A stretch of 64,000 nt of DNA from NCBI GenBank assembly GCA_963723515.1, contig CAVRQT010000003.1, positions 640,001 to 704,000 of the forward strand, written 5' to 3'. The notes under the pieces were generated by a model, which saw only the letters and a program-made list of their open reading frames with translations, did no database searches and was not told the DNA's origin. Shown here piece by piece: positions 8,786-56,878 of this stretch. A program made the translations under genes and the position numbers. The stretch comes from Vulcanimicrobiota bacterium (GTDB lineage: Bacteria; Vulcanimicrobiota; Vulcanimicrobiia; Vulcanimicrobiales; Vulcanimicrobiaceae). Position 1 is the stretch's first letter; every line of letters starts with the position of its first letter.

Positions 8786-9689
8786 CCTCATCGATCTCGA
8801 TGATCTCACGCCGGCGGAGATCGAGTACCTTTTTAAACGGACGCAGCAATTCGAGCAGAAGCTTCCCAAGCGCGGATTGCTCGATGAGATCGCATGCGTC
8901 AACATGTTTTTCGAGCAGAGCACGCGCACGCTGGCCTCATTCATGCTGGCACAGCAGCGCCTAGGTGCAGACATCATCACCCTCGATCCGAGCGACACGA
9001 GCCTCGGCAAAGGCGAGCGCCTCGAAGACGCGGCGATCACGCTCAATGCAATGGGGTTTTCGGTAATGGTGATCCGCCACTCGGAGCCTGGTTTTCCGCG
9101 CCAAATTGCGATGGCGTTTGACGGGCATGTTGTCAACGCCGGTGATGGCGCGCACGCCCACCCGACGCAGGCACTGCTGGACCTGTACACGATGTGCAAA
9201 GAGTTCGGCCAGCTCAAAGGGCGCAAGGTCGCAATCGTCGGCGACATCCTGCACAGCCGCGTAGCGCATTCGAACATTCAAGGCCTGAAGAACTTAGGCG
9301 CCCAGATCGTCCTCGTCGGGCCGGAATCATTCTTACCGGAATCGTTTGCCTCGGAGAGCATTCACGTCGAGCGCGACTTCGATAAGGTCTTGCCGGAAGT
9401 TGATGCGATCATGCTGCTGCGCATTCAGCGCGAACGTTTTGCCGTGACGCCGACGCTGATCTCTGATGAGGACTTTATCCGCGGCTACCGTCTCGATGCG
9501 AACCGCCTGACGCGCCTGAAGGAAGATGCAATCGTCATGCACCCCGGACCGTACAATCGCGGCATCGAGCTCGTCGATGAAGTGCTCGCATACGCCGGAT
9601 GGCGATACGCGAATCAGGTTCGCCATGGCGTCTTCATGCGGATGGCGGTCCTCGACTTCTTGGTCAACGGTCAGCAAAAGAGCGCCTGA
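8769..9689 (+). CDS. pyrB: Aspartate carbamoyltransferase catalytic subunit
   Basis: FFEQSTRT, NAGDG..HPTQALLD, GDILHSRV, HPGP. Confidence 0.96.
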   Translation: MRARRSLIDLDDLTPAEIEYLFKRTQQFEQKLPKRGLLDEIACVNMFFEQSTRTLASFMLAQQRLGADIITLDPSDTSLGKGERLEDAAITLNAMGFSVMVIRHSEPGFPRQIAMAFDGHVVNAGDGAHAHPTQALLDLYTMCKEFGQLKGRKVAIVGDILHSRVAHSNIQGLKNLGAQIVLVGPESFLPESFASESIHVERDFDKVLPEVDAIMLLRIQRERFAVTPTLISDEDFIRGYRLDANRLTRLKEDAIVMHPGPYNRGIELVDEVLAYAGWRYANQVRHGVFMRMAVLDFLVNGQQKSA

Positions 9690-10915
9690 TGCTCGTCTCC
9701 GGCGGCAGAGTGATCGATCCGGCGCAAGAGTTGGATCGCCGGCTTGACGTGCGCGTTGAGAACGAGAAGATCGTTGAATTAGGAGAGCATTTGACGCCGT
9801 CGGAAGATGAGGTCGTCTTCGACGCAAGCGGCGCGTATGTTGCGCCGGGATTCATCGACATGCACGTGCATTTGCGTGAGCCCGGCTTTCCGGAAAAGGA
9901 GACGATCGCGACCGGTTGCGCAGCGGCGGTCGCCGGTGGATTTACGGCGGTTGCGTGCATGCCGAACACGCAGCCCGCGATCGATGAGAAGGCAGTTCTG
10001 AAGAAGGTTCTAGATGCGGCAAAAGGGGCGGCCTTGGCGCGCGTCTACCCGATCGCCGCGATAACCCGCGGCAGAGCGGGACGCGAACTTCTGGATTATG
10101 CCGCTCTAGCGGCCGCTGACGCCGTCGCCTTCAGCGACGACGGCCAAGCTGTGGACGATGGGGGAATTCTTTTTGAGGCGGCCGTTCGTGCGCGCGATGT
10201 GGCACACCCATTCATCTCACATTGCGAAGATGAACGATTGAAGCGCCTGGGGGCTTCGGCCGCCGAAGACGTTGTCGTCGCGCGAGACCTCATCATCGCG
10301 CAAGCAACACGCAAGGCGTGGCATATCGCCCATCTCTCGACGACCGAATCGCTTGCGTTGCTGAGGTGGGCACGCAGTCGCGGAAATGCGGCAACCTGCG
10401 AAGTGACTCCGCACCACCTCTGCTTTACCGACGACCTGATTGCGCAATGGAACGGCAAAGCGAACGTCAATCCGCCGCTTCGGCGGGAAAGCGATGCGGC
10501 GGCGTTGCGTGAGGGCGTGCGCGATGGAACGGTTGATGCATTCGCGAGCGACCACGCCCCGCATGAGTCGCGCGAAAAGACGCGCTCCGTGGATCGCGCG
10601 GCGCCTGGATTCAGCGGGCTGGAAGTTGCGGCGGGTGCCTATGCGCTCGCCGTGCCCGACCTTTCGCTCATGCGCTACGTCGCATTGCTCTCGACGAATC
10701 CCGCGCGCATTCTCAACGTCGGCGGGGGATCGCTGCGATTGGGAGTGCCGGCGGACATGACGATTTTTGCGGATCGGCCGTGGACTGTCGATACGGCGCA
10801 CTTCTATTCTAAAGGAAGATGCACGCCGTTCGAGGGCAAGCGGCTACCGCGAAAAGCGATCGCGACGATCGTCGGCGGCCGGATTGTGATGGCCGATGGG
10901 AAGGTGAAAAGCTGA
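9689..10915 (+). CDS. pyrC: Dihydroorotase
   Basis: PGFIDMHVHLREPG, MPNT, CEVTPHHL, VNPPLR, SDHAPH; TGATG overlap with pyrB. Confidence 0.95.
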   Translation: MLVSGGRVIDPAQELDRRLDVRVENEKIVELGEHLTPSEDEVVFDASGAYVAPGFIDMHVHLREPGFPEKETIATGCAAAVAGGFTAVACMPNTQPAIDEKAVLKKVLDAAKGAALARVYPIAAITRGRAGRELLDYAALAAADAVAFSDDGQAVDDGGILFEAAVRARDVAHPFISHCEDERLKRLGASAAEDVVVARDLIIAQATRKAWHIAHLSTTESLALLRWARSRGNAATCEVTPHHLCFTDDLIAQWNGKANVNPPLRRESDAAALREGVRDGTVDAFASDHAPHESREKTRSVDRAAPGFSGLEVAAGAYALAVPDLSLMRYVALLSTNPARILNVGGGSLRLGVPADMTIFADRPWTVDTAHFYSKGRCTPFEGKRLPRKAIATIVGGRIVMADGKVKS

Positions 10916-11991
10916 AGCCGGCGGCGCTTTTTCTCGCCGATGGCACCCGCTTCGATGGGGGCGGCCTGGAGTTCGAAGGCGTGGCGCTCGGCGAGGCGGT
11001 TTTTTACACCGGCATGACAGGCTATGAGGAAGCCTTGACCGATCCATCCTATGCGGGACAGATTTTGACGTTCACCTATCCGATGATCGGCAACTATGGC
11101 GTCTCGCACAGCGCGGCACAGTATCCACGCGCCTGCGTTGCCGGCGCCGTCATCAAGCATTTGAGCGCCCATCCTTCGCATCACGCATCCGCAATCGGCT
11201 TGCGCGAGTGGCTCGGCGAGCAAAGGATCGCGACGATGGTCGGCGCAGATACGCGCTCGATCACGATCGCGCTGCGCGAACACGGCACGATCTGGGCGGC
11301 GCTTGCGGTCGGCGAAGACGCGTTGCAAAGGGCTGAAAGCGAGCTCACGACGTTCGCGCGGCGCGCCACGACGAAAGACCTCGTGCCCAGCGTCGCCACA
11401 AACCACGAGCACCACGAAGGCAGCGCGCGTGGACCCCACGTCGTCGTGATTGACTGCGGCGTGAAACGTGCGGTTTTGCGAGAGTTAGAAGCGCTCGACG
11501 CCGCGATCACGGTCGTGCCGTTTGACATGCCTGCCGAGGAAATTCTGAAGCACGATCCACGGGCGATCGTCGTCTCCCCGGGGCCGGGTGATCCGACGGA
11601 TCTTGCGGGCACGATCGAAACGTTACATCAATTGGTCGGAAAGCGGCCGATCTTCGGCGTCTGTCTGGGGCATCAGTTGCTGGCGCTGGCTTGCGGCGGC
11701 AAAACGTACAAACTCCCCTATGGTCATCGTGGCGGCAACCAACCCGTTAAGGACCTGGAGGGCGGCGAAGTGCTCATCACCGCGCACAATCACGGGTACG
11801 CCGTCGACTCAGCGTCGCTGCCCAACCACTTGATTCCAACGATGGTCAATCTCAACGACGGAACGAACGAAGGCTTTCGGCATCGCGATTTGCCGGTCGC
11901 GGCGGTTCAATTCCATCCCGAGGCCTCGCCGGGTCCGTTCGACGCACGGCGTCTCTTTGCGCAATGGTTCAACGAAGTCGGACTGCTCTAG
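10912..11991 (+). CDS. carA: Carbamoyl-phosphate synthase small subunit (probable CTG start)
   Basis: GEAVFYTGMTGY..LTDPSY.GQI, GVCLGHQ, QFHPEASPGP; homology begins at CTG AAG CCG GCG, overlapping the pyrC TGA. Confidence 0.95.
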   Translation: MKPAALFLADGTRFDGGGLEFEGVALGEAVFYTGMTGYEEALTDPSYAGQILTFTYPMIGNYGVSHSAAQYPRACVAGAVIKHLSAHPSHHASAIGLREWLGEQRIATMVGADTRSITIALREHGTIWAALAVGEDALQRAESELTTFARRATTKDLVPSVATNHEHHEGSARGPHVVVIDCGVKRAVLRELEALDAAITVVPFDMPAEEILKHDPRAIVVSPGPGDPTDLAGTIETLHQLVGKRPIFGVCLGHQLLALACGGKTYKLPYGHRGGNQPVKDLEGGEVLITAHNHGYAVDSASLPNHLIPTMVNLNDGTNEGFRHRDLPVAAVQFHPEASPGPFDARRLFAQWFNEVGLL

Positions 11992-40174: not shown

Positions 40175-41147
40175 ATGGTCGAGAAGCGGTTGCGGATCGG
40201 AATCACCGGCGCCGGCGCGATGGGAACGCTCTTCGGCTACCATCTCGCGCAGCTTTGCGATGTGACGATGTTCGACCAGAATGCGGCGTTGCTCGAGTGC
40301 ATCAAACGCGATGGGTTGCGCGTAAACGACACACCCGCGCGTTCAGTCGCCGTTGCACGCACGGTAAGCGATCTCTTCGGCTCGTCGATGCTGTTCTTGT
40401 TCGTCAAAGCTGTCGATACGTTGCGCGCGCTGCGTCCATTTGCAGGACAACTGAATCCCGCTACGCCGGTTGTCTCTTTGCAAAACGGCATCCGTAACGA
40501 GAGTGCGATCAAGGCCGCACTGGGTGGAGCGGTTCCGGTTGTGCTTGGAATCACAACGGAGTCTTCGCTGAGCACTGGACCGGGTCAGGTGCATAGTCCA
40601 CGCAGCGGTCACACGATTGTCGGTTCAGGAGGCGCTGCGCCCGAGACATCGCAACGCGTCGCGCAGCTGCTTTCGGCGACCGGCTTGCGGACGTCCGTCG
40701 TCTACGATATTCGGCCGCACCTGTGGGGCAAGCTCATCGCCAATACGGCGATCAACGCGCATAAGCGCGCTGCTCGACTGTCCCGCGGGGGCGATCATTC
40801 CCGACGAAAACGCGACGCGGCTCGCGAAGGCCCTTGCGCGCGAGGCGGTTGCGGTTGCAACGCAATCGCGCATCAATCTGCCGTATTCAGATGCGTGGGC
40901 GTATGTAGAAGAAGTGATTGCGGTCGGCGCGGATTCGAAGAGCTCGATGGCGTTTGACCTTGAAACGGGCCATCCGACGGAGATCGATCATATCAACGGT
41001 GCGATCGTTGCGGCCGGACGCCGGGTCGGCGTGCCGACGCCGTACAACGAGGCAATCGTACAATTAATCAAAGCGCGGGAATCGATCGCAGCCGCGGTGC
41101 CATCACTGCCCACGGTGCCTCCCGTGGAGTCCGAGGCGTCGGCCTAA
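40175..41147 (+). CDS. panE: 2-dehydropantoate 2-reductase (frameshift near 40760)
   Basis: GAGAMG, SLQNG, WGKLIANTAINA, then in a shifted frame SSMAFDL..G.PTEIDHINGAIV. Confidence 0.92.
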
Positions 41148-42900: not shown

Positions 42901-42928
42901 ATATCACAGAATAACAGTTTCATGATAT
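42901..42928. other. dif-like 28-bp recombination site
   Basis: ATATCACAGAA-TAACAG-TTTCATGATAT: 11-6-11 layout with arms 8/11 inverted-identical, immediately upstream of the recombinase. Confidence 0.7.
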
Positions 42929-43125
42929 TCGCGCAAGAGGCGAAACGGACGAATGCTCTCCAAATGCAACGGAAACTCGAAAATGCTCTTCTACGCCTCA
43001 TGGAGAGCGTTCGTCCGTTTCGATCTGCGAATATCAAGAAACTGTAGAGACGAGGAGGTAAAACCATGCGCTGCGTTGTCCGAGAGCATGCGCCCGTTTC
43101 GATCTGCGAATATCATGAAACTGTA
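42914..43125. repeat. Three ~45-bp repeats containing one dif arm (one inverted, two direct)
   Basis: A 42914-42962 (inverted), B 43001-43046, C 43082-43125; consensus GAGAGCRTKCGYCCGTTTCG..GCGAATATCAWGAAACTGT. Confidence 0.85.
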
Positions 43126-43247: not shown

Positions 43248-44222
43248 ATGGTGTTCTCAGCAAGCCTCCTTAGCAAACGGCGTGGGTTTGGCGTTACGCT
43301 GGCATTCATAGTTGCCTGCGCCGGGTGCGGTGGATCGAATCTGACTTCGCCGATCCTGCGCCCAAAGCCGACCCCTTTGGAACGCGCCTATGTCGTGAAC
43401 AGCGCCCCGCCGGGTTCTAGCGGGGATGTCTTTGGCTACGACCTCCCGCTGGCAGCATCAGCGCAGCCGAGCGTCGACCTTAAATTTCAGAATAACGCGT
43501 TCAACCAGAACGCCTTGCCGACCGACGATTGCGGTGACCGGCACGGTAACCTCTACGTCATTCTGCCATCAGCGCATCAATTGACCGGTGGTCCGCTCGA
43601 TGCGTACACGCCGCCGATCACGTCGTCGTCAACGCCGGCGTTTACACGGAACGACGACAACTTTGAACATTGCGCCACCGATCCAAACGGCGATCTCTTC
43701 GTAACCACGCGATCGTTCATTGTCGTTACGCTCGGCGGTCTCGACGTTTTACGGGCACCTGTATCGACGACATCACCCTTGAAGGTAATCTTTCAAATTG
43801 TGGCTGGTCCGCCGTTGTTCGAATTCGTCGGATCGGTGACGGCCGATGCCGCCGGCGACGCTTTCATCACCACCAGCATTGGAATCCAAGAATGGAATAT
43901 GAGCGGCAAGCTGCTGGCGACCTTCGGCACGACGGGACTAGGCAGCCTCGCGATTGGCCCCGACGGCAATCTTTACGTGCCGAATGGCGGAATTGACGTT
44001 TACAAGCCGGGCGGCTTTCACAACGGCGGCGTCAAGGATCACACGATCGGCCTCGGTGCGTTCAATGCATTCAACGTGGCGTTCGACGATGCGGCCAATA
44101 TGCTCGTTCTTGGAAGCACATCGGCGGGAACACCGGAACTCCGCGTTATTCCGCCGCCGTACACAGCGGTCAACTTCTTGCTGCGCGTCATGGGCGACAA
44201 CGGGCTGGCAATAACGCCGTAA
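43248..44222 (+). CDS. Secreted/lipoprotein with beta-propeller-like repeats
   Basis: Lipobox-like CAGC; repeats D..GNLYV, DPNGDLFV, GPDGNLYV, AFDDAANM. Confidence 0.75.
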   Translation: MVFSASLLSKRRGFGVTLAFIVACAGCGGSNLTSPILRPKPTPLERAYVVNSAPPGSSGDVFGYDLPLAASAQPSVDLKFQNNAFNQNALPTDDCGDRHGNLYVILPSAHQLTGGPLDAYTPPITSSSTPAFTRNDDNFEHCATDPNGDLFVTTRSFIVVTLGGLDVLRAPVSTTSPLKVIFQIVAGPPLFEFVGSVTADAAGDAFITTSIGIQEWNMSGKLLATFGTTGLGSLAIGPDGNLYVPNGGIDVYKPGGFHNGGVKDHTIGLGAFNAFNVAFDDAANMLVLGSTSAGTPELRVIPPPYTAVNFLLRVMGDNGLAITP

Positions 44223-53792: not shown

Positions 53793-53811
53793 AAGAAGCT
53801 CCTCTTCCAAA

Positions 53812-53935
53812 CTACTTGCGGGGTTAGTTGACGGGTTCGGACGAGAAAGACTTGCCCTAGGGCCGACCGGCCCACTCACCCCTACCGGAGGAGTTCCCCC
53901 GCTCCACGTGCCCTAGGCACGCGGATTCAGTGACT
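53812..53935 (-). ncRNA. Cyclic di-AMP (ydaO/yuaA) riboswitch
   Basis: CTGAATCC..GGGGGAAC..GGGGTGA..TAGGGC..CCGAACCCGTCAACTAACCCCG consensus blocks upstream of a C40 peptidase. Confidence 0.9.
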
Positions 53936-54006
53936 AGCTAAGCCGCCCGGGTTTACCGCGCAGGCGGCATCTCCTTCCCTTCGCTGGCATACGATGTGCG
54001 ATTTTC

Positions 54007-55372
54007 TTATACCGGTCGAACGCGAGTCGAGGCCCGCGCGATTTTCGTCGCTAGCTCGTTAGCCAACGCGATCGATCTGTGCTTTATCTTTGCCTTCGAC
54101 CATGATGCGAATCAGCGGCTCGGTTCCCGACGGCCTCACCAGGATGCGACCGGTGGCTCCAAGCTGCTGCTCCGCGACGCCGATCGCCTCACGTACATCG
54201 GCATCGTCAAGCGCCTCCCTGTTTGACGCCCGTACATTGACGAGGATCTGGGGATACGAACGCATGTTCGCGGCGGCTTCATGCAGCGTCGAGTTGCTGG
54301 CGGTCAGCAAACTGAGCAGCGTGACGGTCGTCATCGGCCCATCGCCCGTCGTGTTGCGGCGCAAATCGATGATGTGACCCGATTGCTCGCCGCCCAGAAC
54401 GTAGGCTCCGGCCCGCATCGCCTCGAGGACGTAGCGATCCCCGACCGGCGCCCGCAAGAGCGTGATCGCGCTGCCTTGAGCGCCTCCTCGAGCCCTAAGT
54501 TGCTCATGACCGTGCCGACAACCGAATCACCCGTTAATTCACCGTTGTGATGCAACGCTTGCGCCAAAATCAAAAGGACGTGGTCGCCGTTCAGCAGAGT
54601 GCCGCGCTCGTCGACGAACTGCGCGCGATCGGCATCTCCATCGTAGGCGACGCCGATGACGTGCTCTTCGCCGCGGTCGATCAGTTCGCGTACGCGCTGC
54701 GCGAGCGGTTGCAAATCGGTCGCTCCGCAAGCGACGTTGATGCGTGCTCCATCGGCATCACAATTCAGCTCGTGGACCGTCGCGCCGAGTTTGCGCAACA
54801 CGTAGGGTGCGATTGCATATGCCGCGCCAAACGCGGCATCGACGACGACCGTCAAGCCGCTCAAATCTCCTGCGTGCTCGTACAAGGCGTCGTAATAATG
54901 CGCGCCGAGATTGAGCGCGATACGCGCAACGCCGACATCGGTACCGGTCGGCCGCGCGGCACCCTCATCGCGATCGAGCGCATCTTCGATCACCTGCTCC
55001 ATCTCATCCGATAGCTTGAAGCCGTCGGCGCTGAAAAACTTGATCCCGTTATCGGCGATCGGATTGTGGGAGGCGCTGATCATGCAGCCGGCTGCTCCGC
55101 CGGTCCGCCGCGTGACGATCGCGACGGCCGCCGTCGGGCAAAATTCCCACAGAAACCACATCGCGTCCGGCTGACGTGATGCCTGCGACGAGAGCCGCCT
55201 CCAGCATCGTACCGGAAATCCGCGTATCGCGTCCGACGACGAACGGCGCTTTGGCACCCGCATTTGGAACGAGAATTCGGGCCGCCGCTCGCCCCAGCCG
55301 AAAGGCAAGCTCGGGACTGAGTTGCGTGTTTGCAATTCCCCGTACGCCGTCGGTGCCGAAGAGGCGGCTCAT
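54007..55372 (-). CDS. glmM: Phosphoglucosamine mutase (three apparent frameshifts near 55143, 54470 and 54065)
   Basis: [56 protein letters not shown]. Confidence 0.93.
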
Positions 55373-56025
55373 CGCTCAGCTGGTGTGAAGTGTGCGCGCA
55401 CTCGCACTAAGTTTGGCGAGACTTGCACGCCGCTCACTTCCGTGCCGAGCGAATCGACGGCGATCGGCCGTACCATTGCATCGAACAGTCCGGCGGCGTT
55501 CGGCAATGGAACGTCGGCGCGAATCGCGGCAACGCGCGAGACTTCATCCGATGCTCCCCTAGCAACGGCTTGAACCGGCAAAATCTTGGCATCGCTTGCG
55601 ACGACCGCGTGTCGCGTGCCCGAGTAGTAAATAGCGACGGGGAACGTCTTCTGCGCCATCCGTTCTATTGCGAGCGTGACCGATGCGGGACTCAAGGAAC
55701 CAATGACGACGCTCGGCGCGACGAGGCGGATCGGGACGTTGTACACGCCGGCGCCTAAACCGTTCAAATCGAGCACCGCTTTAACGTCGTCGGGGCGAAC
55801 CGCGCTTCCGCCGCGCTTGGGCGGCGCGACCGTTACGACGGCCTGCTTTTCAGTGAAACTCGCGATGTACCCTAATCCCAAATGCGTCGTCGTGATTGGT
55901 ATGCTCAATTGCTCCGAGCGGGCTGCGATGACGGGGCTATTTGCAAACCGAAAGTATGCCCAGCCGGCCAGCGCCAGCACCAGCGACACCGCCTTAAGCA
56001 AGAAGTTGTTTTTAAAGATCTGCAA
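55369..56025 (-). CDS. cdaR: CdaR/YbbR-like regulator
   Basis: N-terminal TM ([16 protein letters not shown]) and YbbR repeats; lies between cdaA and glmM. Confidence 0.85.
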
Positions 56026-56878
56026 CGCGCTGTTTTTCCGCCGGACGGCGTGCAAAGATCGCGCGGATTTGCGCAATGACGTCTTCGCGTACTTTGGTGC
56101 GCGGGGCGCGAATGCAGGCTAAGAGCAGACGGTCAAGGCGCGCTTCATCGCCGATGTCGCGGGAAAGGCGGCCTTCACGCGCAACGGCAACGTGTCCGGT
56201 CTCCTCCGAAATCACGATCACGACGGCATCGGCTTGTTCGGTCAAACCGAGGGCCGCGCGGTGACGTGTACCGAGACGAGGCTCAGCCAGCGATTGCTCC
56301 GCCAGCGGCAAGAAGCAGCCGGCGGCAACGATCGTTTGATCGCGTATCAGGACTGCGCCATCGTGCAACGGCGATCTCGGTGCAAACAGCGCGAGCAGAA
56401 GCTCTCCCGACAGTTCACCGCCGATCGCCGTCCCGCTCTCGATGATATCTTGCAGTCCGCTGGATTGTTCGATGACAATCAATGCACCGTAGCGGTTACG
56501 CGCCAACACGAAGGCGGTCTTTGAAATCGTGGCAATGACGCGATTTTCTCCGCGCAGCGTGCGGCTCTCGGAGCGATCGAACCGGAAGAGTCCGCCACGA
56601 CCGAGGCGCTCGAGTAGCCGGCGCAGCTCGGGCTGAAAGACGATCGGCAAGCTGACGGCCGCCCCGAGCACGATTAATTGCAGAATCGTGCCGAGCAACA
56701 AGAGGTGCGCCATATTCGCGAGCCCGAGCAGCAGCACCAGGAAGAGAACGCCGCCGAGGATTTGCACGGCGCGCGTGCCGCGAATCAACAGCAACACGTA
56801 ATAGATCAAAATGCTCGTCGCAACGATGTCGATAATATCGTTAATGCCGATGTACTGGCCGATTTCAGTGATCGGCAT
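56012..56878 (-). CDS. cdaA: Diadenylate cyclase CdaA
   Basis: Three TMs, IVFQPELRR, SPLHDGA, LGTRHRAALG, ISEETG. Confidence 0.96.
   Translation of the reverse strand: MPITEIGQYIGINDIIDIVATSILIYYVLLLIRGTRAVQILGGVLFLVLLLGLANMAHLLLLGTILQLIVLGAAVSLPIVFQPELRRLLERLGRGGLFRFDRSESRTLRGENRVIATISKTAFVLARNRYGALIVIEQSSGLQDIIESGTAIGGELSGELLLALFAPRSPLHDGAVLIRDQTIVAAGCFLPLAEQSLAEPRLGTRHRAALGLTEQADAVVIVISEETGHVAVAREGRLSRDIGDEARLDRLLLACIRAPRTKVREDVIAQIRAIFARRPAEKQRVADL

Follow-up and report, generated by a model that had tools for sequence, protein, structure and literature searches.

The window analysed here, the whole stretch of 64,000 nucleotides, belongs to the housekeeping chromosome of a Candidatus Eremiobacterota bacterium and shares its gene order with the related loci L001 and L002; no phage or mobile genes were found among the 50 window proteins scanned. 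The region considered comprises a gene encoding an Xer-family tyrosine recombinase, a dif-like palindrome that precedes the start of xer by 24 nt, three copies of a repeat (A, B and C), the first of which corresponds to half of the palindrome, and a divergent gene encoding a secreted protein or lipoprotein (Table 1). Elsewhere in the window, a c-di-AMP riboswitch was recorded at 53797-53942 on the minus strand, upstream of an NlpC/P60 gene, and a diadenylate cyclase gene at 56012-56878.

Table 1. Features of the xer region, with positions counted along the window
Feature	Position	Strand	Remarks
Xer-family tyrosine recombinase, 312 aa	41938..42876	-	Catalytic motifs intact
Full dif-like site	42901..42928	.	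11-6-11 imperfect palindrome, 8/11 symmetric, 75% AT
Putative xer promoter over the site	42908..42936	-	-35-like hexamer 42931-42936, 17 nt, extended -10 42908-42913
Copy A	42914..42962	-	Outer flank, xer-distal arm and 4 spacer bases; repeat template
Spacer 1, the hairpin loop	42963..43000	+	Possible decayed copy of the A flank at ~42966-42991
Copy B	43001..43045	+	Inverted half-site; arm 43031-43041 (10/11); 4/6 spacer bases; far arm 2/11
Spacer 2	43047..43081	+	Strong RBS 43053 and ATG 43066; 20-codon ORF through C, stop 43128
Copy C	43082..43124	+	Inverted half-site; arm 43110-43120 (11/11); 4/6 spacer bases; far arm 2/11
Divergent secreted or lipoprotein gene	43248..44222	+	NHL/beta-propeller-like, rare; 4 matches including itself among 7518 candidates

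When the recombinase was compared with protein family models it passed only the broad archaeal XerA model, scoring below the cut-offs of XerC (TIGR02224, 300.8 bits against 335) and XerD (268 against 330), and also below those of XerS (130 against 267) and IntI (TIGR02249, 109 against 265). E values were 2e-19 for XerH and 1e-48 for XerD. The named relatives of the protein are Candidatus Eremiobacteraeota, and homologues 86-94% identical exist. In a tree built from 45 of the 80 loci and 10 of the 120 listed homologues, from which XerS and XerH references are absent, the window protein and the recombinases that are accompanied by a site form one clade (support 98/94). Four of the loci (L004, L006, L007 and L010) are titled Burkholderiales, yet in the tree their Xer sits with that of L009 and with the Eremiobacterota clade; they are possibly mislabelled bins or carry a transferred gene.

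Related palindromes were found upstream of the xer homologue, at a distance of 65-183 nt, in five of the nine clade loci (L001, L002, L003, L005 and L006), and no dif-like site was found in the DNA fetched around xer in the remaining four (L004, L007, L009 and L010). With a leave-one-out profile, each site came first in its own locus (4/4). A scan for AA-N6-TT palindromes was positive in 20 of the 80 loci, merely 2.3-fold over background, and therefore served for leads only. The skew of L005 reaches its maximum at 9832, at its site (p = 0.0003), the skew of L002 has no sign change and that of L004 shows the opposite trend. Other features of these loci were noted along the way. In L005 the symmetry extends beyond the 11-bp arms (9751-9828, 16 of 25 outer positions), and nine DnaA-box-like motifs lie within 500 bp (11152-11545), 250-650 nt downstream of xer and 1.4 kb from the site. 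The L006 site, which comes after a stop codon and could serve as a terminator too, is part of a longer symmetry with perfect 18-bp arms (9680-9721). Intergenic stretches 2 kb upstream of xer in L009 (7586-8030) and L010 (7759-8160) share motifs by eye and possibly represent non-coding RNA.

In the window, the dif-like site is one of three AT-rich intergenic palindromes of ~28 bp with a 6-bp centre. Its centre agrees with that of difSL, as the sequence is printed in PMC2965235, at 10 of 12 bases, and it is the only such position among 127,989. Under the family profile trained without the window it ranks 4th of about 64,000 positions, with a score of 10.0 vs 20-31 for the training sites, as a divergent member of the family. 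The cumulative GC skew has its maximum at 43333, ~400 nt from the site, with a left-right difference of p = 0.003 by permutation of 1-kb blocks, and among roughly predicted genes those on the plus strand make up 30 of 34 to the left, those on the minus strand 14 of 18 to the right; these two signals are not independent, the skew being weak, confounded with gene orientation and seen over 64 kb only. The KOPS motif GGGNAGGG does not occur in the window, and KOPS-type motifs were uninformative. The xer-proximal arm matches the canonical XerD arm at 8 of 11 positions, a level reached at 21 positions in the window, and from this match a second recombinase acting at the site is possible; the symmetry of the arms, 7-11 of 11, would instead suggest that there is only one Xer in the genome.

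Given the palindrome beside xer, the switch in skew and gene orientation, the palindromes of the clade and the agreement with the difSL centre, a candidate xer-linked dif, overlapping a likely promoter as difSL does with xerS, is the most likely identity of the site at A. The dif label, which the sequence-only reading had merely assumed, thus appears to be supported by the comparison with relatives and with difSL. No published description of this family of dif-like sites was found, nor any mention of Eremiobacter- or Vulcanimicrobi- names in the papers searched or report of such half-site copies, in a literature whose coverage is thin for subscription papers. As for the promoter, its overlap with the site is putative and comes from a script scan and from a similar extended -10 sequence in L002; a stricter promoter scan returned none.

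Alignment bore out the repeats reported in the sequence-only reading. The three copies, of 44-49 nt each, stand far above background and form a single cluster within the 64-kb window. B (43003-43046) and C (43082-43125) are 91% identical across 44 nt at a spacing of 79, and A aligns with each of them in inverted orientation at ~85% identity (E 1e-8 to 1e-9) with one 4-nt gap, the middle of A being 4 nt longer than that of B or C in the alignment. Local alignment scores were 61 for the inverted and 68 for the direct pair, against a maximum of 30 in random window stretches of the same size (above 30 in 0 of 3000). B and C each differ from the rest by two private substitutions, one of them inside the arm of B, a pattern that drift would give.

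The claim that both B and C are truncated inside the 6-bp spacer was also correct: each ends after four of the six bases, and beyond them no far arm was found whichever spacer length between 2 and 10 was tried. Shifted far arms, whose best tail probabilities over the nine spacer lengths were 0.02-0.08, were rejected. The predicted fold of A with B holds as well, the array having fold z-scores of -7.45 on the plus and -6.73 on the minus strand with none of 200 shuffles as good; it adds no separate evidence, since the repeats themselves produce the strong fold. The two spacers, described earlier as unrelated, indeed show no relation (p about 0.5). In spacer 1, what may be a decayed copy of the outer flank of A reached p about 0.01 uncorrected and is borderline only, as the one significant result of 16 comparisons, the other 15 being non-significant.

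It could be argued that none of this concerns Xer: the palindrome might be an operator for a transcription factor or belong to the promoter, and the copies might be a REP/MITE or result from faulty assembly. In L001 and L002 the alignment with A can also be centred on the extended -10, a second register with 17 of 28 matching positions vs 18 of 28 for the site register, and the window does show apparent frameshifts typical of an indel-prone assembly. These occur relative to L002 in several genes (~40732-40764, 41500 and 54480-55370; panE, a DUF4097 gene and phosphoglucomutase) and are probably sequencing indels, so that single-base indels in the array need caution. The copies, however, differ by substitutions, unlike an assembly echo. 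Of the dispersed copies to be expected of a REP/MITE, which the sequence-only reading had weighed against its own proposal, none was found elsewhere in the 64 kb or in the 80 loci searched, and the REP-like tag with which B ends is present just once in the window. Rfam gave no family at gathering score over the array (three matches to miRNA hairpins were below threshold). Moreover the site family tracks one recombinase clade and the endpoint of the copies is repeated in a second locus, so that we regard a reading without Xer as highly improbable.

This second locus is L003, whose recombinase is 45% identical to that of the window and whose site (51-78) is different in sequence. Both halves of this site recur in inverted form between 15 and 145: a copy of the left half lies upstream (15-37) and one of the right half downstream (128-145), each tail-to-tail with its original, in the same layout as the window copies. 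Each of them carries exactly four of the six spacer bases from its own side, and the two copies therefore overlap on the central two bases. Among 50 arm matches listed, from six sources, only the two of L003 and the window's B and C reach four bases into the spacer, the other 46 reaching 0-3. Inverted repeats of at least 18 nt, allowing one mismatch and a distance of up to 250 nt, are rare, 41 being found in the 1.10 Mb of the other 70 loci; the window and L001-L010 together have nine, of which five touch an arm of a dif-like site. The proposed link to Xer and the truncation in the spacer both stand, and this independent locus repeats the truncation, a recurrence that consists of one case found after the fact, in which the left copy lies 14 nt from the contig end.

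In a comparison among relatives, which the sequence-only reading had asked for, the array is lacking in four of the five related site-bearing loci, with no half-site copies in L001, L002, L005 and L006. An array absent from most of these loci is evidently not needed.

The explanation that we favour, with a probability of about one half, is that A is the dif-type site of the adjacent Xer and that B and C are by-products of local inverted duplication, with an end set by Xer. Fold-back or template-switch synthesis would have duplicated a 45-nt stretch of the xer-distal half locally and in inverse orientation, or the inverted copy would have come from one Xer strand exchange that replication then resolved. 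A second event, or a duplication, would have produced the second copy, and afterwards drift would have affected all three, with the middle of A altered by 4 nt. That the copies end in the crossover spacer may be explained by the fact that Xer nicks, swaps strands and holds the junction there. Action of Xer at A is inferred, and so is its chemistry as the cause of the endpoint, since an end after four of six bases is not where a 6-bp spacer would be expected to be cleaved. As B and C have no far arm, normal recombination should fail on them, and each may bind one Xer monomer.

It should be noted that the common ends of B and C, their 91% identity and their unrelated spacers hint at selection or at unit-wise arrival, which they fit better than two random accidents. 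A rather unlikely reading takes up this point and sees B and C as kept for their function, as monomer-binding half-sites or as a hairpin, in autoregulation of xer, as a brake on FtsK or as a decoy for dif-hijacking elements. According to the published descriptions XerS and XerH bind single half-sites (PMC2965235, PMC5241119), XerH cleaves a substrate with the left arm only as well as the full site (PMC5241119) and a recombinase (XerD) on a half-site slows FtsK in an orientation-dependent manner (PMC2800217), so that B and C need not be inert; autoregulation has also been proposed for difSL-xerS (PMC1914069). On the other hand, binding needs neither the 29-nt flank nor the spacer bases, central contacts of XerH being described as sparse (PMC5241119), the array is absent from four related loci, and one of the substitutions falls within the arm of B. 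Overall, the array is real, Xer-linked and apparently undescribed, and most likely a dif module with recombination scars and not a new working system. Of the sequence-only reading, the Xer link and the truncation in the spacer survive; its integration-scar, CTX and shufflon models each fall short on a tested feature, and its accessory binding array stays among the rather unlikely readings.

The first of these models was repeated integration and excision of double-stranded DNA at dif. Integration of a double-stranded circle duplicates the site in direct orientation, as described for LME-1 (10.1101/2021.09.12.459815), and direct repeats would be expected also here; B and C are inverted relative to A, and a double-stranded IMEX scar (attL/attR) does not fit.

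A small invertible switch was also proposed; with asymmetric sites like those of a shufflon, we consider it very unlikely. If A recombined with B or C by inversion, the sole plausible -35 would be carried away from xer and toward the lipoprotein side: at the position of this hexamer A matches at three of six bases and B and C at one of six, and a TATAAA hexamer follows C at 43124. The contig of L003, too, ends beside its repeats. These promoter calls are weak, and recombination at the sole dif would be costly. Moreover, two of the six core bases differ here, which by the chemistry of tyrosine recombinases should block the second exchange. In the R64 shufflon (Rci/sfx), direct and inverted repeats likewise lie beside a tyrosine recombinase and one arm is conserved; the conserved arm faces into the segment and the variable side faces out, as they do here (PMC11852207). 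The sfx sites as described, however, retain the whole core plus one arm (PMC11852207), against four of six core bases in the array, which counts against the shufflon model. The present locus is further unlike R64 in having a chromosomal Xer enzyme of 312 aa, where Rci is described with an extra C-terminal domain (PMC11852207), and no alternative coding ends.

The gene that follows the array was suggested to be captured cargo, for which there is weak support. Between xer and the glycosylase gene, L001 and L002 have an ArsB/CitMHS transporter gene and the window has the lipoprotein gene, so the occupant of the slot does differ; these hosts are distant, however (58-59% at the amino acid level), and the lipoprotein gene has an ordinary composition (GC 0.585, GC3 0.68 for a median of 0.70). 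Its protein has no match in Pfam or NCBIfam, and its Atlas look-alikes are at 0.96-0.97. The AGGAGG-plus-ATG signal in spacer 2, the sole one in 64 kb, and the ORF after it are possibly the relic 5' end of an earlier gene lost from the slot.

A reading built on these facts takes the array as the relic of a CTX-like single-stranded element or of integron-like capture, with A and B as the pair left by one-strand integration, C as a second arrival and the RBS of spacer 2 and the lipoprotein gene as captured 5' ends. Integrons are organised as intI, attI and cassettes with attC hairpins, the recombinase being divergent from the gene slot, and the divergent arrangement of xer, site and possible cargo recalls this layout. 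The variable slot and the fact that the only strong RBS of its kind follows B agree with such a relic, and so would the fold-backs of L003, through which, taken as a pair, both arms would become duplex on a single strand. CTX integration is described as leaving an inverted pair of dif-like sites ~90 nt apart, likewise tail-to-tail (PMC3089051). Nevertheless B and C lack a far arm at all the spacer lengths tried, and the protein scan, as already said, returned no phage or mobile gene. Nor did the search of phage and plasmid sequences, which had been suggested for a mobile origin, give support: BLAST of the intergenic region and of L003:1-220 found none in phages and in plasmids one match of 32-39 nt each, at E 0.3-0.6, which we treated as chance. 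The recombinase lies under the IntI cut-off and the lipoprotein gene is separated from the next gene by about 10 nt, leaving no room for an attC. We judge this reading unlikely.

The resemblances themselves deserve a closer definition. In CTX, attP is described as a hairpin in which two dif-like sites, complete with both arms, pair with each other (PMC3089051), and the array shares with attP1/attP2 the inverted dif-derived segments, a hairpin of ~130-150 nt and a partly unpaired spacer (PMC5357621, PMC3089051). The hairpin of A and B pairs one arm only where both are required, the intact site is the host's own and there are no phage genes; with the far arm of B and C at 2 of 11 and no phage or mobile genes linked, an intact CTX-type attP was rejected. 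To an integron the locus is similar in its Xer-related recombinase divergent from a variable slot, in the site between them and in the hairpin-forming sequence. It differs by the single gene, the failed IntI model (109 of 265 bits) and no attC-like site after the gene, and was not accepted as one.

If A is a dif-type site with duplicated halves, as we favour, the least that follows is a candidate dif family for Eremiobacterota and relatives, with an XerC/D-like enzyme and a gene-linked symmetric site centred as difSL. The endpoint at four of six bases, present in two loci with different sites, may be the trace of a side reaction of Xer at the terminus that has gone unrecognised, and would give a concrete route from a duplex site to a hairpin site, which bears on the origin of attC- and CTX-type substrates. 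In L003, one strand could be folded into two adjacent hairpins that would cover the whole site with both arms duplex. It is conceivable, if distinctly unlikely, that the clade uses a foldable dif, inverted copies letting a single strand present the site as hairpins, so that the host's dimer resolvase could recombine single-stranded substrates and capture or swap the neighbouring gene; the copies would then end two bases short of the cut, with one arm in the window and both in L003. If true, the system would stand as a living intermediate stage, with dif/Xer on one side and the hairpin sites known from integrons and CTX phage on the other.

Two other known systems are close to the favoured explanation. 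In the terminus of Lactobacillus delbrueckii ssp. bulgaricus an inverted duplication that includes dif is attributed to fold-back synthesis after a break (PMC5345009). The scale is different, with 38-76 kb and whole dif sites there (PMC5345009) against 45 nt ending inside the spacer here. The other comparison is with difSL/XerS of streptococci and lactococci and difH/XerH of Helicobacter and Campylobacter (PMC5357621, PMC2731167, PMC1914069, PMC2965235). Membership of the XerS or XerH family was rejected, the window protein having 312 aa vs about 355 aa and the XerS score already given, and being XerC/D-like and in a clade of its own; the arms differ, and flanking inverted half-sites do not appear in the descriptions of difSL and difH compared. 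What these systems have in common with the window is an AT-rich palindrome beside the recombinase gene, near the switch in skew.
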